20,000 bases of DNA from IMG/VR virus record IMGVR_UViG_3300010885_087985; one strand, 5' to 3'. Position 1 is the stretch's first letter; each line of letters starts with the position of its first letter. Source of the DNA: an uncultured virus (IMG/VR IMGVR_UViG_3300010885_087985) (lineage: Duplodnaviria; Heunggongvirae; Uroviricota; Caudoviricetes). Positions 1 to 20,000 of this stretch are shown here, piece after piece. The notes under the pieces were generated by a model, which worked only from the letters and a program-made list of their open reading frames with translations, made no database searches and had not been told where the DNA came from. The translations under genes and the position numbers were made by a program.

Positions 1-2
1 AT

Positions 3-407
3 AAAGGAATTAAATTTGATTGCATAGACACCTGGCTCGGAAGTACGGAGCATATAGAAACCATGAAGAATCTTGGCAATGATTTGTTGTATAGTACTTT
101 TATAAACAACATGAAACCATTAGAAGACTACTATAGTGCCGTTAGAATGTCATCTGTGGACGCTAGCAAAACATATAAAAATGAATCTTTGGACTTTGTA
201 TTTATTGATGCCGCTCATGAATGCGAAAGGGTTAAAGAAGATATTGAAGCATGGTTCCCTAAAGTTAAAATAGGAGGATATTTAGCTGGACATGATTATG
301 ATTTTTATGCTCCTGATGTAGAAAAAGCAGTGAACGAATCCCCTCTTGTTCAACCTTTTACAGTGTCAGAATCGTGTTGGATACATCTAAAAATTAGAAA
401 GTCGTAG
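3..407 (+). CDS. Class I SAM-dependent methyltransferase (Methyltransf_24-like), 5' end outside window
   Basis: Frame is open from base 3 (KGIKFDCIDTWLGSTEH...) into the listed ORF; motifs IDTWLGS, LDFVFIDAAH, KVKIGGYLAGHDY typical of this family. Confidence 0.85.
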   Translation, partial: KGIKFDCIDTWLGSTEHIETMKNLGNDLLYSTFINNMKPLEDYYSAVRMSSVDASKTYKNESLDFVFIDAAHECERVKEDIEAWFPKVKIGGYLAGHDYDFYAPDVEKAVNESPLVQPFTVSESCWIHLKIRKS

Positions 408-423
408 AATAGAGTTTTTGTGT

Positions 424-451
424 TTGATTTTTAAATAAATTCTGGTAGAAT
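424..451 (+). promoter_or_regulatory. Putative sigma70-type promoter for the tRNA region
   Basis: TTGATT (424-429), 16 nt spacer, TGG-TAGAAT (extended -10, 443-451). Confidence 0.5.
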
Positions 452-528
452 CAGAATACCGCGAAGTGGCGAAACGCAAGGGAATTGCTCGTAATATCTT
501 TTAATTGTCTTGTATTCGCTGCTATTGT

Positions 529-550
529 GCCCCTATGGTGAAATTGGCAA
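529..550 (+). pseudogene. Orphan 5' fragment (acceptor strand and part of D-arm) of a disrupted tRNA-Leu(UAA)
   Basis: GCCCCTA-TG-GTG-AAATTGGCAA has tRNA-Leu 5' architecture; GCCCCTA (529-535) pairs 7/7 (one G.U) with TAGGGGT (1618-1624) of the 3' tRNA half. tRNA-like sequence stops at about 550. Confidence 0.75.
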
Positions 551-573
551 TGATGTGTAGCTTGGAAGTAAAT

Positions 574-648
574 GGCCCGGTAGCCCAATTGGCAGCAGGC
601 ACGACACTTAAAATGTCGCAAGTATCGGTTCGAATCCGATCCGGGCTA
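574..648 (+). tRNA. tRNA-Leu(UAA), intron-less, short variable loop, CCA not encoded
   Basis: Acceptor GGCCCGG/CCGGGCT, D-stem GCC/GGC, anticodon stem CGACA/TGTCG with loop CT-TAA-AA (anticodon 609-611), 5-nt variable loop CAAGT, T-arm ATCGG-TTCGAAT-CCGAT, discriminator A648. Confidence 0.93.
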
Positions 649-726
649 CTTAAAAAGCAGACATGATATTCTTTATTTTTGGTGTATACCTATTAGGTCA
701 CTACTCCCTTCAATAAAGGATTAAAA

Positions 727-1197
727 ATGAAAATATGTTTGAATTGCAATCAGTCATTCCCTGCTTATGCTATAGTAAATGGTAAACAAAAACAATTAAC
801 TTCAAGAACGTATTGTTTAAAATGTTCACCATTTGGTAATAGAAACACAAAAAGATTACATATGCCACCAAGAGATAAAAATAGCAAAAAAGAATGCACA
901 GAATGTGGCAAAGAGTTCAACTGGACAAAAAATAGTGTTTGTTCTACTTGTAGAAATTGGAAAAGTAGAAAGAATAATAGAAACAAAGCAATAAAATATT
1001 GTGGAGCAAAATGCTCTAAATGTGGTGTTAAAGATAATGAAGTATTAACTTTTCATCACAAAAACGAAAAGACAAAAAAATTTAATTTGTGTCAAAATTG
1101 GAATTGTGCATGGTCAATGATCTTATCAGAAATAAAAAAATGCGAACTACTTTGTGCTAATTGTCACATGAAACATCACAGAAAAGAAATGCTATGA
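727..1197 (+). CDS. Free-standing HNH endonuclease with N-terminal CxxC zinc-ribbon motifs
   Basis: C-terminal CSKCG...LTFHH...EIKKCELLCANCHMKHH is the typical phage HNH signature; four further CxxC pairs (CLNC, CLKC, CTEC, CSTC); SD AAAGGA upstream. Confidence 0.85.
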   Translation: MKICLNCNQSFPAYAIVNGKQKQLTSRTYCLKCSPFGNRNTKRLHMPPRDKNSKKECTECGKEFNWTKNSVCSTCRNWKSRKNNRNKAIKYCGAKCSKCGVKDNEVLTFHHKNEKTKKFNLCQNWNCAWSMILSEIKKCELLCANCHMKHHRKEML

Positions 1198-1380
1198 TTT
1201 TTGATCACTGGAGAATGAAATTGAAGGATATAGCGTTAGAAACGAAAAAGCAATAAGCGACATAATAAACTGTGTTGCAAAAGGCAAAAAAGACGATATA
1301 ATCAAGGGGATTGATGCCAGCTTATGCTATGGGGCATGAACAAGGTTATGATGTTGGATATTATGACGCTAATGAGACTT
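1194..1380 (+). pseudogene. Frameshifted remnant of a small (~60 aa) phage protein
   Basis: ATG overlaps the HNH stop (ATGA). With two opposite 1-nt shifts it reads MIFDHW/ENEIEGYSVRNEKAISDIINCVAKGKKDDIIK/GLMPAYAMGHEQGYDVGYYDANET, ending at the intron 5' splice site; no single frame is open throughout. Confidence 0.45.
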
Positions 1381-1576
1381 ATTTATTTGAGTGTTTAAGG
1401 AGAAATCTTTAAAATAGAACCTGTCAAATTCGGTGAAGGCTTAACTGCTAATACCGAGCCAAGCATAGAAATATGAAGGTGTAGAGACTTGACGGCAGGA
1501 ACCTAAAACATAAAGTTATGGTTAAGGTAAAGTCCAGACCACAAACAGAAATGGTAGTGAAAACTATAGTGGTAAG
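1381..1576 (+). ncRNA. Group I intron (IC3-like, cyanobacterial/plastid trnL(UAA) type), 196 nt, no internal ORF
   Basis: P1 ACTT|A with TGAGT (U1380.G1389 splice pair); P2 TTTAAGGA-GAAA-TCTTTAAA; P3 CCTGTC/GGCAGG; P4 TTCGGT/ACCGAG; R GTAGAGACTTGACGG (1481-1495); S AAGGTAAAGTCC (1524-1535); P9 region ACCAC/GTGGT with GAAA loops; terminal G1576 followed by exon AAAATCCGT. Confidence 0.92.
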
Positions 1577-1625
1577 AAAATCCGTTGCCTGCAAGGGCTT
1601 GTCGGTTCAAGTCCGACTAGGGGTA
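1577..1625 (+). pseudogene. 3' exon of tRNA-Leu(UAA) (class II, long variable arm), separated from its 5' end
   Basis: AAAA-TCCGT anticodon 3' side, variable arm GCCT-GCAA-GGGC, T-arm GTCGG-TTCAAGT-CCGAC, acceptor TAGGGGT, discriminator A1625. Only GACTT of the expected ACGGACTT 5' exon precedes the intron. Confidence 0.88.
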
Positions 1626-1654
1626 TTTTTTCTTGCCAATGTATTGGTATAATT

Positions 1655-1873
1655 ATGGAAAAACTAAAATTTTTAGCAGAAGAAATTTTTGAAGACATTG
1701 CTGGAGATCCGGATAACGTCATTCTGAAAATTCCTTCACAAATACTAGAACGTAATGGATGGAAAGAAGGAGATGAGCTAAACATTGAAGTTGAGGATGG
1801 CTCCATTGTAATTTCAAAAGCAACTGGAGTGGTTGAAGAGTTGCCTGTTCAAATTCCGCCTTCGGTAACTTAA
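1655..1873 (+). CDS. AbrB/MazE/SpoVT-family DNA-binding protein
   Basis: ILKIPSQILERNGWKEGDELNIEVEDGSIVISK matches the swapped-hairpin IP-x-I-x4-W-x2-GD-x-L-x-I pattern. Confidence 0.8.
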   Translation: MEKLKFLAEEIFEDIAGDPDNVILKIPSQILERNGWKEGDELNIEVEDGSIVISKATGVVEELPVQIPPSVT

Positions 1874-1882
1874 AAAAATATT

Positions 1883-2962
1883 ATGAGTGAAAAAATATTA
1901 ATAACCGGCATCGGTGGATTCTTAGGTCACCATTGTTTAAAGTATTTTCTTGATCATACTGATTATAATATAATTGGTTTGGATAGTTTCGTTCACAAGG
2001 GTACTTGTCAAAGAATTGAAACGGTCACAGGTCCTAATCCTCGTGTTAAAATTTTTAAACATGATCTAACTGTTCCAATAGACCGTCAATTAGAAAATTT
2101 GTTATTAGATAGAAAAATTGATAAGGCAGGCAATATTGTTGATGATAGAATTGATGCCATAATCAATATTGCAAGTGATAGTGCTGTAGAACGGTCTATA
2201 TCAAATCCGTCGCTTTGTTGGAAAAACAACTGCGATTTGATGCTCACAATTTTAGAGTTCGCCAGAATTGCCAAGCCAAAAATATTTATACAGGTATCTA
2301 GTGATGAAGTGTATGGTGAAGCCCAACCACTACCATCAAAAGGGCACGAAGAATGGTCAACTATAATGCCAAGTAATCCTTATGCGGCGTCAAAAGCCGC
2401 ACAGGAAGCATTGTGCATTAGTTATTTTAGGTCATATGACGTACCAATTGTAATCACAAACTGCATGAATCTTATAGGGGAATGCCAAGACCCTGAAAAG
2501 TTTATTCCAAAAATCATACAATGCGTAGCACAAGGTCACACTGTTCCCATTTACGGCGATGCAGACCAATCTGGAAGTCACACTGATTCTAATGGAGTGC
2601 GGTGGAATATTGGTAGTCGAGTTTATTTAGATGCTCTCAATAAAGCTGATGCACTAGTTTTTTTAACAAAACAAAAGGTTTCTAAATATTCACAAGGATT
2701 TAAGTCCCCAGACCGGTATAATATTTGTGGTACAGAATCTCTTGATAATTTAGAAATTGCAGTATTGATTTCAAATATAATGCAAAAGCAATTAAATTAT
2801 AAATTAGTAGCATGCGAAAGTGCTCGTGCGGGTTATGACAGACGATATGCTTTAGATGGATCTAAATTAGCGTCAAAAGGTTGGGTTGCACCAATACCAT
2901 TTGATAGTACAATTTTGAGAATAGTTAATTCAAGTTTAAAAAATGCTCAATGGATAATTTGA
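1883..2962 (+). CDS. NAD-dependent nucleotide-sugar dehydratase (dTDP-glucose 4,6-dehydratase/RfbB-like)
   Basis: ILITGIGGFLG Rossmann motif, ASDSAVERSI, VSSDEVYG, catalytic YAASK, PEKFIPK, RAGYDRRYALD. Confidence 0.88.
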   Translation: MSEKILITGIGGFLGHHCLKYFLDHTDYNIIGLDSFVHKGTCQRIETVTGPNPRVKIFKHDLTVPIDRQLENLLLDRKIDKAGNIVDDRIDAIINIASDSAVERSISNPSLCWKNNCDLMLTILEFARIAKPKIFIQVSSDEVYGEAQPLPSKGHEEWSTIMPSNPYAASKAAQEALCISYFRSYDVPIVITNCMNLIGECQDPEKFIPKIIQCVAQGHTVPIYGDADQSGSHTDSNGVRWNIGSRVYLDALNKADALVFLTKQKVSKYSQGFKSPDRYNICGTESLDNLEIAVLISNIMQKQLNYKLVACESARAGYDRRYALDGSKLASKGWVAPIPFDSTILRIVNSSLKNAQWII

Positions 2963-2967
2963 TTGTT

Positions 2968-3387
2968 TCATTCTTCTAATTGAACCTTGCTAACATTCCT
3001 TTGATTTCGCAAGGACTCCAGAAATAATTTTATATTTTTAAAACCATTTATTTTTATTTTAACAACATAAATATTTGAAGTCGAAGGCGTTACGCTTAAA
3101 ACAGTCGCACCATACTGATTGATCAATCCAGTCACATCATTGCTGCTAAGGTTTGTTGTATCCATTATTACTGTAATATTTGTGCTAGAAAAATTTCTAT
3201 ATGTGACAATAGATCCAGACGCTAGAAATAAGCATAGAGCACAAATAGCCGCAAAGTTGGATAAGGTGCGAAATCCACGATTATTTTGTAATGATCCCAT
3301 ATCAACAACAACATCATTATCAGGAGGCGTGCCGCTTCTTAAAGATTTTAGATATTTTGGCAACTCATTAATGGGCATAATTTTCAT
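2968..3387 (-). CDS. Hypothetical single-pass membrane protein with small alpha/beta C-terminal domain
   Basis: 139 aa, hydrophobic FAAICALCLFLASGSIV segment, AAAGG upstream of ATG. Confidence 0.6.
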   Translation of the reverse strand: MKIMPINELPKYLKSLRSGTPPDNDVVVDMGSLQNNRGFRTLSNFAAICALCLFLASGSIVTYRNFSSTNITVIMDTTNLSSNDVTGLINQYGATVLSVTPSTSNIYVVKIKINGFKNIKLFLESLRNQRNVSKVQLEE

Positions 3388-3426
3388 ATTAACCTTTTTT
3401 AATATTTAGGGCATAAGATCAAATTT

Positions 3427-4392
3427 TCATAAAATTCCATAGCGACTAATTATGAATTTACGCAAATTGATATCAAGAACTTCATTTACCCATAAAGGGT
3501 CTATATCGTATTTTAGAATTTTATCAATATATTGTTCCAAATGCTCATATCGAGATGCTCGATATAAACCGACTAAAAGTCCACTTTCAATGCGTGGGAA
3601 AGATGTCGTAAATCCGTAAAATTGATCGTAGACTTGCACATTAATCTCATCTTTTGTTAATAGCGATATGTAAGTGTGTAGGTACTCATCAGATGTAAAA
3701 AAGGGTATACCTAGTGTTCCATGAAAACCATAAGTTGGATATTGGTTACATTCCCTATCAAATAGATCATAATTCCAGCTTAAAGCTCCATTCTGTACTG
3801 CTAAGCCCAAAATTTCTGTACTAAATGTGCGGGCTAATTTGGCAGGAGCATATCTAACACCAAGACTCGTAAACAAATCATGGTAGCATATGCAAATACG
3901 AGTATCTTCAGGCTGCTGCGGATCAAAGACAACATCATCACTTAAACAAACATCAAGCAACAACCGGCTTCGTATGCTAAAGCCACCATTTCCAACATTA
4001 TGTCCTTTAATGCAACGATCAGAATGATACCCTGTATTAAACATACAGGCACCACATTCAAAGCACGCACCTATATAATCGTAGTACAGAAATTCATTGT
4101 TCCAACGTGAAGAGCACGCTGGCATTCCATCATATTGAACTATCATGAAGTGATTTCCCACCACATGTTTGCCCAACTCTTTTAATATAAATTTTGAATA
4201 ATCTTCACGATTTTTTAAACGATCTATTTTAAAAAAAATGCTACCAGGATAAAAATCTATGTCACTAAAAACATAAACTTTTTCACATCCTGTACACCTT
4301 ATAGTGTGATCCAAAACCAATTTACATAGTTCATGTTTAAACGTACTAACCATCACAATGGACAGTCCGTTTGTTTTACAGCTAGGATTCAC
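3427..4392 (-). CDS. DUF5672 family (glycosyltransferase-like) protein
   Basis: Motifs HFMIVQYDG, WNNEFLYYDYIGA, VGNGGFSIRS, PEDxxIC, ARTFSTE, YGFHG; GTG start uncertain. Confidence 0.82.
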   Translation of the reverse strand: MNPSCKTNGLSIVMVSTFKHELCKLVLDHTIRCTGCEKVYVFSDIDFYPGSIFFKIDRLKNREDYSKFILKELGKHVVGNHFMIVQYDGMPACSSRWNNEFLYYDYIGACFECGACMFNTGYHSDRCIKGHNVGNGGFSIRSRLLLDVCLSDDVVFDPQQPEDTRICICYHDLFTSLGVRYAPAKLARTFSTEILGLAVQNGALSWNYDLFDRECNQYPTYGFHGTLGIPFFTSDEYLHTYISLLTKDEINVQVYDQFYGFTTSFPRIESGLLVGLYRASRYEHLEQYIDKILKYDIDPLWVNEVLDINLRKFIISRYGIL

Positions 4393-4559
4393 TGTGTCGC
4401 TTTACAAAAAACCTACAAGGTATTTTCGCAGATCATAGGCATATTCAGAAACATCTGCAAGACCGCCTCAACATTCTTATTCACTAATGACATTCTAACA
4501 ATATATAGGATATTTCAAGCAATAGCTAGTGTAGATTAATTCACTATGGAGGGTCATCC

Positions 4560-4715
4560 ATGTTGCTTAAAAACATAATGCTTATTTTCACCAATAAAAA
4601 AGAAGAAGAAACAAAAGAAGCTAGAATAGAGCGAAAATATTTCAAATATTTAACGAAAAAAGCCGATAGGTCTACGAAAAAATATGGAGGATTTAATCAG
4701 AGCTTGGGGAGATAA
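4560..4715 (+). CDS. Putative 51-aa basic small protein (not in ORF track)
   Basis: GGAGG (4548-4552) 7 nt before ATG; MLLKNIMLIFTNKKEEETKEARIERKYFKYLTKKADRSTKKYGGFNQSLGR*; overlaps csrA 3' end on the opposite strand. Confidence 0.45.
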   Translation: MLLKNIMLIFTNKKEEETKEARIERKYFKYLTKKADRSTKKYGGFNQSLGR

Positions 4716-4869
4716 GTTCGCTTCTTAAAACGGTAATCTCCTTGTCTGCTTCAATTCCAATTCGAACTTTATTACGGTTGTCGATTCTGACAACCGTAAT
4801 TTTGATATCGTCCATATTTGGACCTCTCAATATTATCGTTTCGTCTTTTTTCCTGCTTAAAACCAACAT
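4693..4869 (-). CDS. csrA: Carbon storage regulator CsrA/RsmA RNA-binding protein (58 aa)
   Basis: MLVLSRKKDETI...IKITVVRI...KVRIGIEADKEITVLRSEL; start reassigned to ATG at 4869, which has SD AAAGGA. Confidence 0.92.
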   Translation of the reverse strand: MLVLSRKKDETIILRGPNMDDIKITVVRIDNRNKVRIGIEADKEITVLRSELISPSSD

Positions 4870-5019
4870 AAGTATCCTTTCTTTTCCTTGTTGTTCTGTC
4901 AAGTTAAATGAGTGCAATTTCTAAATAAATGCATAAATATTTCAAAATATTTAAAAATTTTTTTTGCCTATTTTAAAGCGTTTTTTGTGTATATTCCTGT
5001 AAATTCTTATGAGTATGAC

Positions 5020-5047
5020 TTTACAATCAGAATGCTTGGCGTATACT
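5020..5047 (+). promoter_or_regulatory. Putative sigma70-type promoter
   Basis: TTTACA (5020-5025), 16 nt spacer, TATACT (5042-5047). Confidence 0.55.
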
Positions 5048-5130
5048 TGTATGGAGACTTGTTCAGGACCTTTTAAGAATATCGCCGTTATTTTAAGGTC
5101 TTTTATTTTGCAGGCGTTAGGAGAGATGTC

Positions 5131-5625
5131 ATGTCGATGAAGAGTGTTTCTAATAGAGTAGAAAAGGAGTTGTCTAACACAGTCAAAGGCTTTGAAAACC
5201 TTTTTCAGGCAATGACTGAGTATGTTGAATCTGCGATGGATCGGCTTGTTGATACGTTTGAGAAGTGTGGCAATTTAGTTGAAAGCAAAACAATTAAATT
5301 GGCAAAGAAATCCACACAAACAAACCCAAAGAAGACTTCTAAGAAGTCTATTAAGCCATCCAAGAAGACTGCTGCTCCTAAAAAGGCTAGAAATGTTGGT
5401 GGTTTGAAAAAGAGTCTGTTAGACATTTTGCAAAATGAGAGTAATCCGCTTACAGAAGAATCCATTGCAAAGAAGCTGATGGAGAATCCTGAAAAGTATA
5501 AGTGGAATAAGAATGAAAGTACTCTTTACCAAACCCTAAGAAGGGCTGTAAAAGAGCAGTTGATTTCGGAGTCAGAAGATAGAAGTAAAGAGTCTAAAAC
5601 TTACAAAGCTAGCAAGGTTGCTTAA
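5131..5625 (+). CDS. Basic putative DNA-binding protein (Lys-rich linker, possible C-terminal winged helix)
   Basis: SD AGGAG; KKSTQTNPKKTSKKSIKPSKKTAAPKKAR linker followed by LKKSLLDIL..PLTEESIAKKL..TLYQTLRRAVKEQLI helix pattern. Confidence 0.6.
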   Translation: MSMKSVSNRVEKELSNTVKGFENLFQAMTEYVESAMDRLVDTFEKCGNLVESKTIKLAKKSTQTNPKKTSKKSIKPSKKTAAPKKARNVGGLKKSLLDILQNESNPLTEESIAKKLMENPEKYKWNKNESTLYQTLRRAVKEQLISESEDRSKESKTYKASKVA

Positions 5626-5639
5626 AGAAAGGATTTAAA

Positions 5640-6011
5640 ATGGATAATGCTAAAAAGCCGACGAAGGCATCTACTGCCAGAGCGTTCATGGAGAAAATAG
5701 GAGCTTTTCAAAAAGTACCACCAATAGGATGGGCGAAAAAAGTTGAAGATCACTTGGAGGAAAATGGATTTAAAACCTCACCTTCAGGTAAGATGCAAGT
5801 TTATTCCATTCGTTGGCAGGCGATGAAGGACAAACTTGGCGGCAGTAAGAAAGGCATTAAAGAAGCGTTCATTGAAAAAGCGAAAAAGAATCCCGGAAAT
5901 AAAGTTTCTGTTGGAGATCTTGCTTCTGCCAAGAAGTTTGCTTTTTCAAATGGTGGCATCACTAAGTGTATTGAAATTTTTAAGGCATTAGACTCTTTAA
6001 TTAATTCTTAA
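5640..6011 (+). CDS. Hypothetical basic protein
   Basis: SD AAAGGA; 123 aa; C-terminal DLASAKKFAFSNGGITKCIEIFKAL helix hairpin recalls small planctomycete proteins (from memory, unverified). Confidence 0.7.
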   Translation: MDNAKKPTKASTARAFMEKIGAFQKVPPIGWAKKVEDHLEENGFKTSPSGKMQVYSIRWQAMKDKLGGSKKGIKEAFIEKAKKNPGNKVSVGDLASAKKFAFSNGGITKCIEIFKALDSLINS

Positions 6012-6032
6012 AGATTCCTAGTTCTTATTATT

Positions 6033-6074
6033 GCAAGCCCGCTTGGAAGTTTTCAAGCGGGCTTGCGTCTTTTT
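6033..6074 (+). terminator. Intrinsic terminator
   Basis: Perfect 13-bp stem GCAAGCCCGCTTG/CAAGCGGGCTTGC (6033-6066) followed by GTCTTTTT. Confidence 0.8.
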
Positions 6075-6089
6075 CACAAGGCTGTGTAA

Positions 6090-6401
6090 ATGAGATATGC
6101 ATTCGATATAGATAATACTTTATTGCATACTGTTGGAAATGACTATGAAAAATCCACGCCTATACAGCATCGGATAGATCGAGTAAATCGTCTATTTGAT
6201 GAGGGGCATATCATTTATTTGTTTACGGCAAGAGGTATGGCTTCTGGTAGGAACCTATACCCACTAACAGAAAAACAAATAAATGACTTCGGCATTAAGA
6301 ACCATGGAATTATAATGGGCAAACCAGATGTTGATGTGTTCGTAGATGACAAGGCTATTTCTGCCCACGAATGGGATAAGCAGTGTGACAAGAGCATTTA
6401 G
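6090..6401 (+). CDS. Small HAD-superfamily phosphatase (capsule-biosynthesis phosphatase-like)
   Basis: Motif I FDIDNT, motif II FTARG, motifs III/IV GKP...FVDDK. Confidence 0.85.
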   Translation: MRYAFDIDNTLLHTVGNDYEKSTPIQHRIDRVNRLFDEGHIIYLFTARGMASGRNLYPLTEKQINDFGIKNHGIIMGKPDVDVFVDDKAISAHEWDKQCDKSI

Positions 6402-6403
6402 CA

Positions 6404-6432
6404 TTGACAAGTTGCCTTGTTTGCTGTAGTAT
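6404..6432 (+). promoter_or_regulatory. sigma70-type promoter
   Basis: TTGACA (6404-6409), 17 nt spacer, TAGTAT (6427-6432). Confidence 0.7.
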
Positions 6433-6501
6433 GTCTGGCACCGTGATTCACACGGTAGCTAATTGGACACGATTCCTAATATCTGAGAAATAGGAAGTAT
6501 A

Positions 6502-7071
6502 ATGCGCCTAGACCACATTGCATACAGAGTAAAAGACAGAAAAAAAACATCAGAATTTTTTATTGATGCTTTTGGCTATAAAGTTCAAACGGAATTCGAC
6601 ATAGACTTTCCAGACGGAAGCCAGGCAAAATGCATAGCATTAGAGCCTCCAGAAAAACCAAAAATTGAAACATTGCACTGGGTAATCAATCAGTATGTAG
6701 GAAACCCTTTCTTAGAGAACATTCAAAAAGAAATGTTTGCTCAATTCCACATGCCGCCAGAAATATTTATCTCCGATGGCACTCCAGATTCAATCGTTGG
6801 AAAGTGGGTCGAAAAAAGAGATAATGTTGGTGGGGTTCACCACATGGCTTATCAAGTACAAAGTGTTGAGAACACCATGAAGGAGTGGAAAGACAAAGGA
6901 TACGCAGAATTCGCATCAGAAAAACCTTTAACTTGTCCTGGACTAACGCAAGTTTTTACTCGTCCATCAAATTTAACAGGAGTAATTTTTGAATTCATAG
7001 AAAGAGGAGCCAAAGGATTTTGTGTGGCTAACGTTAAAGAATTAATGGAAAGCACAAAAGAAAACATTTAA
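6502..7071 (+). CDS. VOC/glyoxalase superfamily metalloenzyme
   Basis: LDHIAYRV, GGVHHMAYQV and FEFIER provide the His/His/Glu metal-ligand pattern of VOC proteins. Confidence 0.8.
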   Translation: MRLDHIAYRVKDRKKTSEFFIDAFGYKVQTEFDIDFPDGSQAKCIALEPPEKPKIETLHWVINQYVGNPFLENIQKEMFAQFHMPPEIFISDGTPDSIVGKWVEKRDNVGGVHHMAYQVQSVENTMKEWKDKGYAEFASEKPLTCPGLTQVFTRPSNLTGVIFEFIERGAKGFCVANVKELMESTKENI

Positions 7072-15690: not shown

Positions 15691-18600
15691 TTGTCTGAAG
15701 AACTGTTCGTTAAATTAGATGTGGGAACTCAAGGAGTTCAAGGAATTCAAGGAATTCAAGGAATTCAAGGAATTCAAGGAATTCAAGGAATTCAAGGAAC
15801 GCAAGGAACGCAAGGAACGCAAGGAACGCAAGGACCCACAGGTGCTCAAGGAACTCAAGGAACTCAAGGAATTGGGTCACAAGGTATTATTGGACTTCAA
15901 GGCATCCAAGGCATTACTGGGTCGCAAGGCATCCAAGGAGTCGCTGGATCACAAGGAGTCTCTGGTTCCCAAGGAATCGCTGGTTCACAAGGCATACAAG
16001 GTCGGCAAGGAATTAATGGATCACAAGGAGTAACTGGTTCACAAGGAGTCACTGGTTCACAAGGAACTCAAGGAACTCAAGGTGCCACAGGAAACCAAGG
16101 AACTCAAGGCACTCAAGGTATTTCTGGATCGCAAGGTACTCAAGGAGCTACTGGTTCACAAGGAGTTACTGGGTCGCAAGGAATCCAAGGAGTCGCTGGC
16201 TCGCAAGGCATACAAGGTCGGCAAGGAATTAATGGATCACAAGGAGTCTCTGGTTCACAAGGAATTATTGGATCCCAAGGCATTCAAGGAACACAAGGAA
16301 CGCAAGGGGGAACAGGAGCACAAGGTACACAAGGAACGCAAGGACTACAAGGCGTTACTGGATCTCAAGGCACTCAAGGAGTACAGGGCATCACTGGCAT
16401 CACTGGATCACAAGGAGTTGTTGGATCGCAAGGAGTCGCTGGATCTCAAGGCGTACAAGGAGTCGCTGGGGCACAAGGCACACAAGGTCAACAGGGAGTT
16501 ACTGGATCACAAGGCACTCAAGGTACACAAGGTGTACAAGGTATTACTGGATCACAAGGGGTACAAGGAATTACTGGTTCGCAAGGAGTTATTGGGATAC
16601 AAGGAACTCAAGGAACGCAAGGGGGAACAGGAACTCAAGGAACTCAAGGAACTCAAGGATTACAAGGCGTTACTGGATCACAAGGCATTACTGGTTCACA
16701 AGGTGTTCAGGGGATTCAAGGGGTTACTGGCTCACAAGGAGTCGCTGGATCGCAAGGTATACAAGGAATTACTGGATCACAAGGTACTCAGGGCATACAA
16801 GGCACTCAAGGTATACAAGGAATTACTGGATCACAAGGAGTCGCTGGTTCGCAAGGTATACAAGGAATCACTGGATCTCAAGGTACACAAGGACAACAAG
16901 GTATCCAAGGAATCACCGGATCTCAAGGTACACAAGGAGTACAGGGCATCCAAGGAATCACTGGATCTCAGGGTACACAAGGAGTACAGGGCATCACTGG
17001 GTCTCAAGGCACACAAGGATCTCAGGGCACTCAAGGTACACAAGGAGTACAGGGCATCCAAGGAATCACTGGATCTCAAGGCACTCAAGGCACACAAGGT
17101 GCTCAAGGTGCTCAAGGAGTACAGGGCATCACTGGATCTCAAGGCACACAAGGCACACAAGGCACTCAAGGAGTACAGGGCATCACTGGATCTCAAGGCA
17201 CACAAGGTACACAAGGAGTACAGGGCATCACTGGATCTCAAGGTACACAAGGCACTCAAGGATTACAGGGCATCACTGGATCTCAGGGCACTCAAGGTAC
17301 ACAAGGAGTACAAGGTATCACTGGATCTCAAGGTACCCAAGGTACTCAAGGAGTACAGGGCATCACTGGATCTCAAGGTACACAAGGTACTCAAGGAATT
17401 CAGGGCATCACTGGATATCAAGGCACTCAAGGGACACAAGGCTTACAAGGTACTCAAGGGATTCAAGGGATTCAAGGCATACAAGGCACTCAAGGACTAC
17501 AAGGCGTTCAGGGTAGACAAGGCATTCAAGGTGTTCAAGGCATTCAAGGACTACAAGGGATTCAAGGCGTACAAGGTATAAGACCTGATTTTTCTATTGA
17601 GTTGACTGGATCATATAATCTTTCAACTAATCTAATAGGATTGCAACTTTTCAACACTACTCCGCGTTCTGAACTTTCAGTAGGTTTTGTTATAGGCTCT
17701 AGAGTACGAGCGGCAAAGTCTAACTCTCCTGGTAACACAGCACTTGGTGGTTATGCAACTCACTATGTGGAAGGATTGCTGTATCTCGCCACTAATTGGC
17801 CCAACGGTAACGTCTATATTAATGTTGATACACAATTTGGATCCGGCGCAGTAAGTTCATGGGTTTTATCGGTTGCAGGTATTCAAGGTACTCAAGGTGC
17901 TCAAGGTATTCAGGGTATTCAAGGTATTCAAGGTATACAAGGAATTTCTGGGTTTTCTGGTAGAGGCATTCAAGGTATACAAGGCATTCAGGCAGCACAA
18001 GGTACTCAGGGTGTTCAAGGAACACAAGGAACACAAGGAACACAAGGAACACAAGGAACACAAGGTACTCAAGGTACTCAAGGAGTACAGGGCATCACTG
18101 GATCTCAAGGCACTCAAGGTACTCAAGGTACTCAAGGCACTCAAGGTACTCAAGGTACTCAAGGTACTCAAGGTACTCAAGGTACTCAAGGAGTACAGGG
18201 CACCACTGGATCTCAAGGCACACAAGGTACACAAGGACAACAGGGCATCACTGGATCTCAAGGTACACAAGGTACTCAAGGAGTACAGGGCATCACTGGA
18301 TCACAGGGCACTCAAGGAGTACAGGGAATCACTGGGTCTCAAGGCACACAGGGACAACAGGGCATTACTGGATCTCAAGGTACACAAGGAGTACAAGGCG
18401 CCACTGGATCACAGGGCACTCAAGGACAACAGGGCATACAAGGAAGTACTGGGTCACAAGGCACGCAAGGACAACAAGGTATACAAGGAATCACTGGATC
18501 TCAAGGCATACAAGGTACTGAAGGAACACAAGGAATTACTGGATCTCAAGGCACTCAAGGCACTCAAGGCACTCAAGGCACTCAAGGCACTCAAGGAGTA

Positions 18601-20000
18601 CAGGGAATCACTGGATCGCAAGGTACTCAAGGAGTACAAGGCATCACTGGATCACAGGGCACGCAAGGACAACAGGGCATCACTGGATCTCAAGGTACAC
18701 AGGGACAACAAGGTATCACTGGATCTCAAGGCACTCAAGGAGTACAGGGCATCACTGGATCTCAAGGCACTCAAGGAGTACAGGGCATCACTGGATCACA
18801 GGGTACACAGGGACAACAAGGTATCACTGGATCTCAAGGTACTCAAGGAGTACAGGGCATCACTGGATCTCAAGGGACACAAGGAGTACAGGGCATCACT
18901 GGATCTCAAGGTACACAAGGAGTACAAGGCATCACTGGATCTCAAGGTACACAAGGACAACAGGGAGTTACTGGGTCTCAAGGTACACAAGGACAACAGG
19001 GCATCACGGGATCTCAGGGCACACAAGGACAACAGGGAGTTACGGGATCTCAAGGTACACAAGGGCAACAGGGCACTCAAGGACAACAAGGCATACAAGG
19101 AAGCACTGGGTCACAAGGCACTCAAGGACAACAAGGCATCACTGGATCTCAAGGTACACAGGGACAACAGGGAATCACTGGATCTCAAGGTACACAAGGG
19201 CAACAGGGCATCACTGGATCACAGGGCACTCAAGGACAACAAGGCATACAAGGAAGCACTGGATCTCAAGGTACACAAGGACAACAAGGCATAACTGGAT
19301 CTCAAGGTACACAGGGACAACAGGGAATCACGGGATCTCAAGGCACACAAGGACAACAGGGAGTTACGGGATCTCAAGGTACACAAGGGCAACAGGGCAT
19401 CACTGGATCTCAGGGCACTCAAGGAGTACAAGGCATCACTGGATCACAGGGCACTCAAGGACAACAAGGAATACAAGGAGTGCAAGGGCTAGCCGCTGTT
19501 ATGTCCGTAACATCAACTAGTTCCAGATACCTTGGAATCGGACTATACGGCAGGATTTTTGCATACGCATCAACACCATCAATAGGGTTCGCAGTTGGAC
19601 AAAGACTACGGGCAGCAGTCACGGCTAGCCCAACAACAGAATACATGGAAGGAAACGTAACTTCAGTAAGTGACACCGAAGTAGCAATAACAACAGATCT
19701 TTCTGTTGGATCTGGTCTGTACAGTGCATGGACATTATCAGTTGCAGGAGTTCAAGGCACTCAAGGCATTCAAGGAGTTACTGGTTCGCAAGGTACTCAA
19801 GGTGTACAAGGAGTTACTGGTTCTCAAGGTACTCAAGGACAACAGGGAGTTAATGGGTCTCAAGGTACACAAGGAGTACAAGGCATCACTGGATCACAGG
19901 GCACTCAAGGACAACAAGGCATACAAGGAAGCACTGGGTCACAAGGCACTCAAGGACAACAAGGCATCACGGGATCACAAGGTACACAGGGACAACAGGG
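15691..20000 (+). CDS. Very large collagen-like fibre protein (>1430 aa, runs off window; not in ORF track)
   Basis: Frame 1 open from TTG 15691 (MSEELFVKLDV-GTQGVQGIQ...) to window end; Gly-X-Y blocks 15724-17580 (~206 triplets), 17878-19488 (~179) and 19747 onward, separated by non-repetitive domains that stay in frame. Confidence 0.93.
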   Translation, partial: MSEELFVKLDVGTQGVQGIQGIQGIQGIQGIQGIQGTQGTQGTQGTQGPTGAQGTQGTQGIGSQGIIGLQGIQGITGSQGIQGVAGSQGVSGSQGIAGSQGIQGRQGINGSQGVTGSQGVTGSQGTQGTQGATGNQGTQGTQGISGSQGTQGATGSQGVTGSQGIQGVAGSQGIQGRQGINGSQGVSGSQGIIGSQGIQGTQGTQGGTGAQGTQGTQGLQGVTGSQGTQGVQGITGITGSQGVVGSQGVAGSQGVQGVAGAQGTQGQQGVTGSQGTQGTQGVQGITGSQGVQGITGSQGVIGIQGTQGTQGGTGTQGTQGTQGLQGVTGSQGITGSQGVQGIQGVTGSQGVAGSQGIQGITGSQGTQGIQGTQGIQGITGSQGVAGSQGIQGITGSQGTQGQQGIQGITGSQGTQGVQGIQGITGSQGTQGVQGITGSQGTQGSQGTQGTQGVQGIQGITGSQGTQGTQGAQGAQGVQGITGSQGTQGTQGTQGVQGITGSQGTQGTQGVQGITGSQGTQGTQGLQGITGSQGTQGTQGVQGITGSQGTQGTQGVQGITGSQGTQGTQGIQGITGYQGTQGTQGLQGTQGIQGIQGIQGTQGLQGVQGRQGIQGVQGIQGLQGIQGVQGIRPDFSIELTGSYNLSTNLIGLQLFNTTPRSELSVGFVIGSRVRAAKSNSPGNTALGGYATHYVEGLLYLATNWPNGNVYINVDTQFGSGAVSSWVLSVAGIQGTQGAQGIQGIQGIQGIQGISGFSGRGIQGIQGIQAAQGTQGVQGTQGTQGTQGTQGTQGTQGTQGVQGITGSQGTQGTQGTQGTQGTQGTQGTQGTQGTQGVQGTTGSQGTQGTQGQQGITGSQGTQGTQGVQGITGSQGTQGVQGITGSQGTQGQQGITGSQGTQGVQGATGSQGTQGQQGIQGSTGSQGTQGQQGIQGITGSQGIQGTEGTQGITGSQGTQGTQGTQGTQGTQGVQGITGSQGTQGVQGITGSQGTQGQQGITGSQGTQGQQGITGSQGTQGVQGITGSQGTQGVQGITGSQGTQGQQGITGSQGTQGVQGITGSQGTQGVQGITGSQGTQGVQGITGSQGTQGQQGVTGSQGTQGQQGITGSQGTQGQQGVTGSQGTQGQQGTQGQQGIQGSTGSQGTQGQQGITGSQGTQGQQGITGSQGTQGQQGITGSQGTQGQQGIQGSTGSQGTQGQQGITGSQGTQGQQGITGSQGTQGQQGVTGSQGTQGQQGITGSQGTQGVQGITGSQGTQGQQGIQGVQGLAAVMSVTSTSSRYLGIGLYGRIFAYASTPSIGFAVGQRLRAAVTASPTTEYMEGNVTSVSDTEVAITTDLSVGSGLYSAWTLSVAGVQGTQGIQGVTGSQGTQGVQGVTGSQGTQGQQGVNGSQGTQGVQGITGSQGTQGQQGIQGSTGSQGTQGQQGITGSQGTQGQQ

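Follow-up and report, generated by a model that had tools for sequence, protein, structure and literature searches.

We examined a 20,000-nucleotide (nt) stretch of DNA from an uncultured freshwater virus of the Caudoviricetes (IMG/VR record IMGVR_UViG_3300010885_087985; hereafter, the window) and found a class II tRNA-Leu(UAA) gene that was split into two pieces by an 825-bp insert. The insert carried a complete class I tRNA gene with the same UAA anticodon and a free-standing HNH endonuclease gene. What was observed directly is the anatomy of this locus, its intact and donor-type counterparts, both junctions, the sporadic occurrence of the HNH gene at a syntenic slot and the constant linkage of that gene to tRNA-Leu(UAA) genes. 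Our account of the locus, which we consider probable but well short of certain, is that an HNH-linked break in the class II tRNA-Leu(UAA) gene was healed illegitimately with a patch of donor DNA that brought in a replacement tRNA. The features of the locus are listed in the table.

Features of the split tRNA-Leu(UAA) locus and its neighbors (window coordinates; L numbers denote the loci compared)
Feature	Position	Strand	Evidence or remarks
Upstream neighbor, methyltransferase	3..407	+	PF13578, 5.5e-11; not the donor-slot neighbor
Relic of a third tRNA-Leu(UAA), L019-type class II, D-loop to anticodon loop	466..486	+	19/21 identical
Split class II tRNA-Leu(UAA), 5' piece: initial 22 nt with the 5' strands of acceptor and D-stem and the D-loop	529..550	+	Identical to the tRNA 5' ends of L006/L007/L010/L005
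Donor-derived stub, the 23 nt preceding the class I tRNA in donor-type loci	551..573	+	22/23 identical to L011
Complete class I tRNA, anticodon UAA, short variable loop, discriminator A73, no encoded CCA	574..648	+	97% to the L014 tRNA
Free-standing HNH endonuclease gene, 156 aa, full length	727..1197	+	PHROG profiles, relatives
ORF-X remnant, 5' two thirds of the donor's next gene (MTFDHW...), truncated, frameshifted	1194..1375	+	85-89% to L011, L013, L014
GACTT, last 5 nt of the split tRNA 5' exon: anticodon stem end, C32 U33 U34	1376..1380	+	Sequence compared with intact relatives
196-nt group I intron of the classical tRNA-Leu(UAA) kind, inserted between U34 and A35, without an open reading frame	1381..1576	+	Rfam, alignment, RNAalifold
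3' exon of the split class II tRNA-Leu(UAA), A35 to A73, long variable arm	1577..1625	+	49 nt; 98% to L006/L007
Downstream neighbor, AbrB/MazE-like small protein	1655..1873	+	PF04014, 8.5e-09; not the donor-slot neighbor

The 5' piece of the split gene (GCCCCTATGGTGAAATTGGCAA) was identical to the start of the tRNA-Leu(UAA) gene in loci L006, L007 and L010. An exact scan of the viral contigs with this 22-mer revealed nine loci, and in every case the match was the start of a tRNA-Leu gene: five tRNA-Leu(CAA) genes, one intronless 82-nt tRNA-Leu(UAA) gene (L005), and the genes of L006, L007 and L010. The tRNA identity of the 5' piece is therefore not a matter of chance. The latter three loci each contained a complete class II tRNA-Leu(UAA) gene with an intron between U34 and A35, in the order 22-mer, ACACAACG, GACTT, intron and AAAATCCGT..., and were 90-92% identical to the window in the intron and 91-98% identical in the 3' exon. 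ARAGORN returned nothing at these loci; Rfam placed a group I intron 3 nt past the 22-mer in L006 and L007, and the intron of L010 was recognized by its 90% identity to the window intron. Further intact intron-bearing alleles, with a slightly different acceptor stem, were found in L062/L067. The intact 5' exon reads ...GGCAA-ACACAACG-GACTT, and the window lacked exactly the 8 nt ACACAACG, the place of which was occupied by the 825 bp from 551 to 1375.

A first-pass annotation of this DNA had proposed a tRNA-Leu(UAA) gene split into a 5' piece (529-550) and an intron plus 3' exon ending at 1625, separated by approximately 825 bp and lacking 8-10 nt. Comparison with the intact genes of L006, L007 and L010 confirmed this split, set the separation at 825 bp and the loss at exactly 8 nt, and, together with L062/L067, supplied the uninterrupted allele that the annotation had anticipated. 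Some details required correction. The acceptor strands, which had been described as exactly complementary, form six Watson-Crick pairs and a G1-T72 wobble; and the 3' portion was rightly said to enter the intron at 1381, but GACTT at 1376-1380 also belongs to the split gene. When we asked whether all parts of the split tRNA were still encoded, the 8 nt proved absent, and the 20 kb contained no further tRNA-Leu fragment save the relic at 466-486.

Judged by its sequence, the intron is a member of the classical tRNA-Leu(UAA) group I introns. The Rfam model RF00028 matched positions 1370-1558 with 50.6 bits, just above the gathering score of 50, and the introns in L006, L007, L011 and L036 scored 62.6-72.6. 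The splice context was GACTT/a...g/AAAATCC, with a U preceding the 5' splice site and the terminal G at 1576, and the classical context is CUU/a...g/AAAA (Williams 2020 preprint). The insertion point, the preceding U and the G at the intron end were thus the same as in the classical bacterial intron; in contrast, the introns described here belong to phages and interrupt tRNA-Leu genes of both classes. None of the 49 RNAalifold consensus pairs was broken in the window intron, which indicates that it had not decayed; among the 31 distinct introns compared, the same held for 19 of the remaining 30. Additionally, its guide GAGT(G) was still able to pair with GACTT at 1376-1380. The stretch from the final 24 nt of the intron through 6 nt of the adjoining 3' exon was found exactly in 28 contigs of bacterial metagenome-assembled genomes from Bacilli, cyanobacteria, Bacteroidota, Alphaproteobacteria, Actinomycetota and others, and the alignments to such contigs covered up to 76-83% of the intron. 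We also observed matches of 65-98% to the intron core (1424-1583) in other phages, including two 735-kb uncultured phages, Agrobacterium phage Atu_ph07 and crAss-like phages, and in the capsid gene of Pelagibacter phage HTVC120P.

Alignment revealed that the insert was colinear with loci L011, L013 and L014, from 23 nt before their tRNA gene into about two thirds of ORF-X, an open reading frame (ORF) that follows the HNH gene. The class I tRNA matched the Rfam tRNA model with 57.7 bits. Its variable loop had 5 nt, the long class II arm was absent and A73 was present; ARAGORN reported it (574-649, anticodon UAA) as the single tRNA in the 20 kb. Bacterial tRNA-Leu belongs to class II. The class I tRNA is here called a leucine tRNA after its anticodon, and it would presumably be charged with leucine; the alternation of class I and class II alleles at one slot, described below, suggests that both classes are used equally. 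In donor loci, the intact ORF-X encodes 73 aa and its ATG overlaps the HNH stop codon, and the remnant in the window contained one 1-nt deletion, one 1-nt insertion and an in-frame stop. At the left junction, recipient and donor shared one A; at the right junction, no letter was shared with an L014-like donor. Junction homology of 0-1 nt points to illegitimate break repair and not to regular homing. Judging by these alignments, the insert is a patch of a donor locus from related freshwater phages that was joined by ectopic illegitimate repair.

The HNH protein best matched the profile phrog_2255 (HNH endonuclease) with an E-value of 3.5e-28, and four PHROGs so annotated were matched in all. 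It retained all 27 Cys, His and Asn positions that are invariant in the family, and 206 phage records matched it, many of which are annotated as HNH. A GIY-YIG catalytic domain found no match in this protein, which matched HNH-type profiles instead. The first-pass annotation was thus borne out on the main contents of the insert, namely a complete tRNA of different sequence and the same UAA anticodon (574-648, of class I, unlike the split class II gene), an HNH endonuclease and a decayed ORF, which is the ORF-X remnant.

To describe the company kept by this enzyme, we used its relatives in the viral contigs, of which a protein search found four and a profile search 28 loci. Close relatives (at least 52% identity) occurred at 23 loci, two of which had no upstream DNA; the other 21 were scored, L012 by its identity with L011. 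A tRNA-Leu(UAA) gene lay directly upstream of the HNH gene, approximately 75 nt away, in all 21 loci (4 class I intronless, 8 class II intronless and 9 with an intron). In particular, L013 and L014 had a 74-75-nt tRNA-Leu(UAA) gene approximately 75 nt upstream of the HNH gene, as in the window, and L011/L012 had the same kind of tRNA bearing a group I intron. Among distant relatives (35-41% identity), four of five lay beside or within tRNA genes. The best relatives in GenBank phages, with 32-36% identity, came from Bacillus Bastille-like phages, and both of those inspected (Anthony and Bastille) were inside tRNA clusters. In Bacillus phage Bastille (L157, 1821-2649), a 32% identical HNH gene was situated between two tRNA-Asn genes annotated at 73 and 68 nt; this isoacceptor pair around an endonuclease recalls the arrangement in the window.

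The tRNA type of the window (acceptor GCCCCGG/GGCCCGG) was found only together with an HNH gene, in four contexts: the window, L014, L022 and L034. The co-occurrence of tRNA and HNH elsewhere, which the first-pass annotation had expected, was therefore found. The L014 context was the F2 slot described below, that of L034 was downstream of a metallophosphoesterase gene, and L022 was a compositional island in which the HNH stretch had 27% GC, compared with 40-41% in the flanks. A promoter-like TTGAC...TATAAT preceded the class I tRNA and HNH genes in L022 (2310-2350) and L034 (2315-2345) and was absent from the stub in the window. In a tree of the HNH proteins, the L014 enzyme grouped with enzymes linked to class II tRNAs (support 97/95), and the tree disagreed with the tRNA type.

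The donor slot was surveyed through the F2 protein in the best 80 of 228 F2 loci (L041-L120). Clustering of the ORFs of the loci gave the gene order ...F8 F18 F2, tRNA-Leu, (HNH), (ORF-X), F6/F32, F21, F1 F3 F4..., in which HNH and ORF-X are optional; L006, L007 and L010 showed the same F2 slot without the window-type HNH gene. The window was not syntenic with this slot, because only the HNH gene and one epimerase family were common to both. The HNH gene was present in 8 of the 80 loci and, in syntenic loci, always followed the 3' end of the tRNA and preceded the next gene. Comparison of filled and empty sites (L084 with L063; L056 with L054 and L058) showed it to be a discrete insert of approximately 530 bp. 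In its sporadic occurrence as a discrete insert, the gene behaves like a free-standing homing endonuclease gene. A different HNH-like ORF, on the opposite strand, was observed beside the intact intron-bearing tRNA-Leu gene of L006 (2240-2737, +); its match to HNH_3 (4.8e-4) was below the Pfam cut-off.

The tRNA genes at the slot were highly diverse. Among the 80 loci, 39 carried a tRNA-Leu(UAA) gene with a group I intron (e.g., L044, 2232-2428), 38 carried an intronless tRNA-Leu gene (37 UAA, 1 CAA) and 3 had too little downstream DNA. Removal of the intron by script gave a valid ARAGORN tRNA-Leu(UAA) in 37 of 37 complete intron loci, and two more were cut by contig ends. According to a 2014 review (PMC3984707), all phage introns then known were in protein-coding genes, despite the many phage tRNA genes; contrary to that review, group I introns are common in these phage tRNA genes. 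A literature search of incomplete coverage found no later report, and group I introns in phage tRNA genes appear to have been unreported before. The slot tRNAs comprised class I (73-77 nt) and class II (82-86 nt) genes with wholly different acceptor stems, and the 97 tRNAs over all loci represented 54 distinct sequences. Class I tRNA-Leu(UAA) genes were common at the slot without any HNH gene. The slot tRNAs lay approximately 100 nt downstream of F2, and their alleles had unrelated acceptor stems and mosaic arms; in L119, an L019 body was combined with the window-type anticodon stem CGACA/TGTCG.

We also found a fossil of a third tRNA-Leu gene at 466-486, which stopped near U33/U34 and lay 42 nt upstream of the split gene. 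It was the one match with 2 mismatches in the window, and none of 200 shuffles gave a match at 3 mismatches or fewer. We read it as the relic of an earlier tRNA replacement at the same place, and it suggests repeated tRNA turnover at this spot.

The window is part of a 153,917-bp metagenome contig, and L016 was 100% identical to window positions 1-6565. The junctions recurred in contigs from other samples, in agreement with the arrangement given in the first-pass annotation. L015, from another metagenome, was 99% identical to positions 1-1138, including the left junction. In the probable source run, an independent assembler gave one contig over 300-1582 with zero differences. Run X2, from another study, covered 300-1106 with 11 differences and bridged the left junction; at the right junction, its contig (1346-1581) had 30 letters to the left, one short of the threshold used. 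Run X3, from a third study, bridged both junctions (300-641 and 1319-1495). An arrangement common to strains 1-3% apart is established in a lineage. Run X2 also contained a variant, at depth 7.1, in which a class I tRNA-like stretch (558-688, 10 differences) was followed by 17 other letters and the AbrB-like start region (1648-1677). This variant was without HNH, intron and 3' exon, and its anticodon stem showed a compensatory change; the depths of 12.8 and 7.1 add up to the 19.9 found downstream. It may represent a separate allele of the same phage, or one that has been cleaned up. L015 (1353-3249) jumped back approximately 580 bp relative to L016 past position 1317 and then continued at 95.8% identity, which reflects either chimeric assembly of strains or, upstream of the window, a tandem duplication.

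We propose the following course of events. In the ancestor of this phage, the class II tRNA-Leu(UAA) gene would still have been whole, with its anticodon loop interrupted by a group I intron able to splice itself out, and a co-infecting donor-type phage of a related freshwater group would have expressed the HNH enzyme. This enzyme may have broken or nicked the resident tRNA-Leu gene near positions 22-31, in the D-stem/anticodon-stem part; many HNH homing enzymes nick DNA. We infer that the HNH enzyme itself made the break and that it targets tRNA-Leu(UAA) genes or their close surroundings, as T4 SegB does its tRNA region. The break would then have been repaired by copying the 825-bp donor stretch of 23 nt, class I tRNA, HNH gene and two thirds of the next gene; without homologous flanks, the copied stretch would have had to include the HNH region and, by its position, the donor tRNA. 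With the loss of 8 nt, the old tRNA gene was dead. The imported tRNA is assumed from its identical anticodon to decode UUA and UUG, and the event may have been tolerated since this replacement came in the same patch. TTA and TTG made up 55% of the 339 Leu codons in 22 ORFs of the window. The first-pass annotation had envisaged a selfish cassette that destroys its target tRNA while supplying a cleavage-resistant isoacceptor and displaces an intron-bearing allele. Our account keeps the selfish endonuclease DNA, the break of the intron-bearing allele and the supplied isoacceptor, but not the tidy cassette, which is at odds with the 23-nt stub, the truncated bystander gene and the 0-1 nt of microhomology, nor a regular homing site, as the patch was a one-off for which no second site was found.

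The same patch could also have entered through a break or template switch unrelated to the specificity of the HNH enzyme, whether by random illegitimate recombination or through another nuclease such as a different homing endonuclease or a host defense enzyme, and have survived only because an isoacceptor tRNA chanced to arrive with it. We consider this unlikely, although far from negligible. It accords with the minimal junction homology, with the absence of an immune/sensitive polymorphism between HNH-linked and HNH-free tRNAs, and with the presence of other endonuclease-like ORFs beside this tRNA, such as the weak HNH_3 match in L006. However, a random insertion would hit the 280-bp isoacceptor gene in 153,917 bp with a chance of only approximately 0.2%; moreover, the inserted DNA begins 23 nt before the donor's isoacceptor gene, the link between the HNH family and tRNA genes holds at each level examined, and a second tRNA-Leu fossil lies at the same spot. 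A stricter version of homing, in which a compact tRNA and HNH cassette regularly enters this position of intron-bearing tRNA-Leu alleles, would explain why the tRNA type and HNH gene occur together in four contexts and why L022 and L034 share a promoter/tRNA/HNH unit. We judge this version improbable. The first-pass annotation had looked to other genomes for the unit at the same site, but the split tRNA-Leu gene or junction was found in none of the 21 other HNH loci and none of the 80 slot loci, and the left junction had 0 matches in viral_contigs. The patch also contained a truncated bystander gene, and its ends vary, with an F2-type stub in the window and a promoter in L022/L034. An assembly chimera of two phages with a shared tRNA-Leu sequence might be suspected in a metagenome contig, since the intron 3' end is repeated among many organisms of the same samples (loose ends at 1582-1589) and L015 itself looks strain-chimeric beyond the region; nevertheless, with the left junction at 99% in a record from a different metagenome, contigs of two other studies bridging the junctions with strain-level differences and an identical contig over 300-1582 from an independent assembler in the probable source run, a chimera is highly improbable. 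We give still less credence to the notion that both pieces yield a working tRNA as a split or trans-spliced gene. The intron is intact and its guide can pair with GACTT, but 8 nt of the D-stem/anticodon stem are absent from the window, no complementary leader sequences were found, and splicing would leave the insert in place, since the break falls within the exon, before the 5' splice site.

Several observations weigh against our own account of an HNH-linked break healed with a donor patch. The closest donor matches were a mosaic (97% to L014 for the tRNA, 66% at the amino acid level to L011 for the HNH protein and 89% to L011 for ORF-X), no direct donor was found, and the HNH protein of the window stood alone on a long branch in the HNH tree. 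The failure to find a second example of the insertion site, in the searches given above, applies here as well, and no pre-insertion allele with the window's own flanks was present in the contigs of the four metagenome runs compared. HNH-linked and HNH-free tRNA alleles showed no systematic difference in the broken region, and identical class II alleles occurred with and without the HNH gene (L063 and L027/L084; L047 and L036), which argues against a simple rule of a resistant tRNA and leaves the immunity of carriers unexplained. The intron was equally frequent with and without the HNH gene (4 of 8 HNH-bearing and 35 of 72 HNH-free F2 loci), and a logic of collaborative homing was thus not evident. 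The assignment of the enzyme to the HNH family is suggested by PHROG profiles and annotated relatives; searches of Pfam, NCBIfam and PDB sequences with the protein gave no match, and its fold match was weak. Finally, the support for the junctions came from assembled contigs (viral records and Logan contigs over 300-1900) and not from raw reads.

A broader reading, to which we give somewhat less than an even chance, is that enzymes of this HNH family are homing endonucleases directed at tRNA genes, by which isoacceptor tRNA genes of phages are displaced one after another. Such an enzyme would break a rival's tRNA-Leu(UAA) gene and be copied in with its own tRNA even without flanking homology, and the fossil at 466-486, the split gene and the class I gene would represent three generations at one spot. 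If true, tRNA-directed conflict would explain the more than 50 tRNA-Leu(UAA) alleles, in two structural classes and half of them intron-bearing, at one slot.

With respect to its surroundings, the window was AT-rich and phage-like, with a GC content of 31-39% up to 16 kb. Its ORFs included a methyltransferase, an AbrB/MazE-like protein, a nucleotide-sugar epimerase, a ClpX-like ATPase and a collagen-repeat tail-fiber-like ORF. The last of these, at 15691-19998, was open-ended, exceeded 1436 aa and contained collagen triple-helix repeats (Pfam 7e-188); its GC content was 46-50%, compared with approximately 35% in the rest of the window.

The locus is a variation on known homing-endonuclease biology. 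Free-standing homing endonucleases are known to spread via homologous flanks, and their arrival in new genomes has mostly been inferred from laboratory T4 crosses. The locus described here is a natural product of an endonuclease jump, for which donor-type and recipient-type alleles are both recoverable, and it shows a way in which such a jump could do no harm, with the patch carrying a presumably working copy of the destroyed function. The occurrence of this HNH family in tRNA clusters from freshwater to Bacillus phages parallels SegB, whose role in tRNA-based escape from host defense was shown in 2026.

SegB targets the T4 tRNA region (PMC2988022), and homologues of segB show an enrichment near tRNA genes, at distances of up to 1 kb (PMC13096335). 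Like SegB, the window enzyme is encoded outside introns, occurs sporadically in related phages and lies among tRNA genes, and a flanking marker, the tRNA, is co-inherited. In contrast, SegB is a GIY-YIG enzyme and the window enzyme is HNH-like, with linkage to one isoacceptor, tRNA-Leu(UAA); the event in the window was an ectopic insertion inside a tRNA gene instead of conversion via homologous flanks. HNH genes inside formerly continuous genes are exemplified by mobE in nrdA of Aeromonas phage Aeh1 and mobA in T4 gene 39/60 (PMC2988022). The window likewise has a free-standing HNH gene within a once-continuous gene; however, those split genes stay functional as two polypeptides, whereas the split tRNA is dead and an isoacceptor comes from the same patch. 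Illegitimate break repair has been described for T4 in the laboratory (PMC2988022), with a donor without homology, microhomology junctions and some target loss, as in the window. That system involved an intron, whereas the window holds a natural product in which a free-standing endonuclease gene moved together with a tRNA gene. Lastly, in collaborative (trans) homing, a free-standing endonuclease acts beside an ORF-less intron, as in cyanophage psbA and T4 mobE/I-TevIII (PMC3984707); here, by contrast, intron and HNH gene have no statistical tie, and the host gene is a tRNA.

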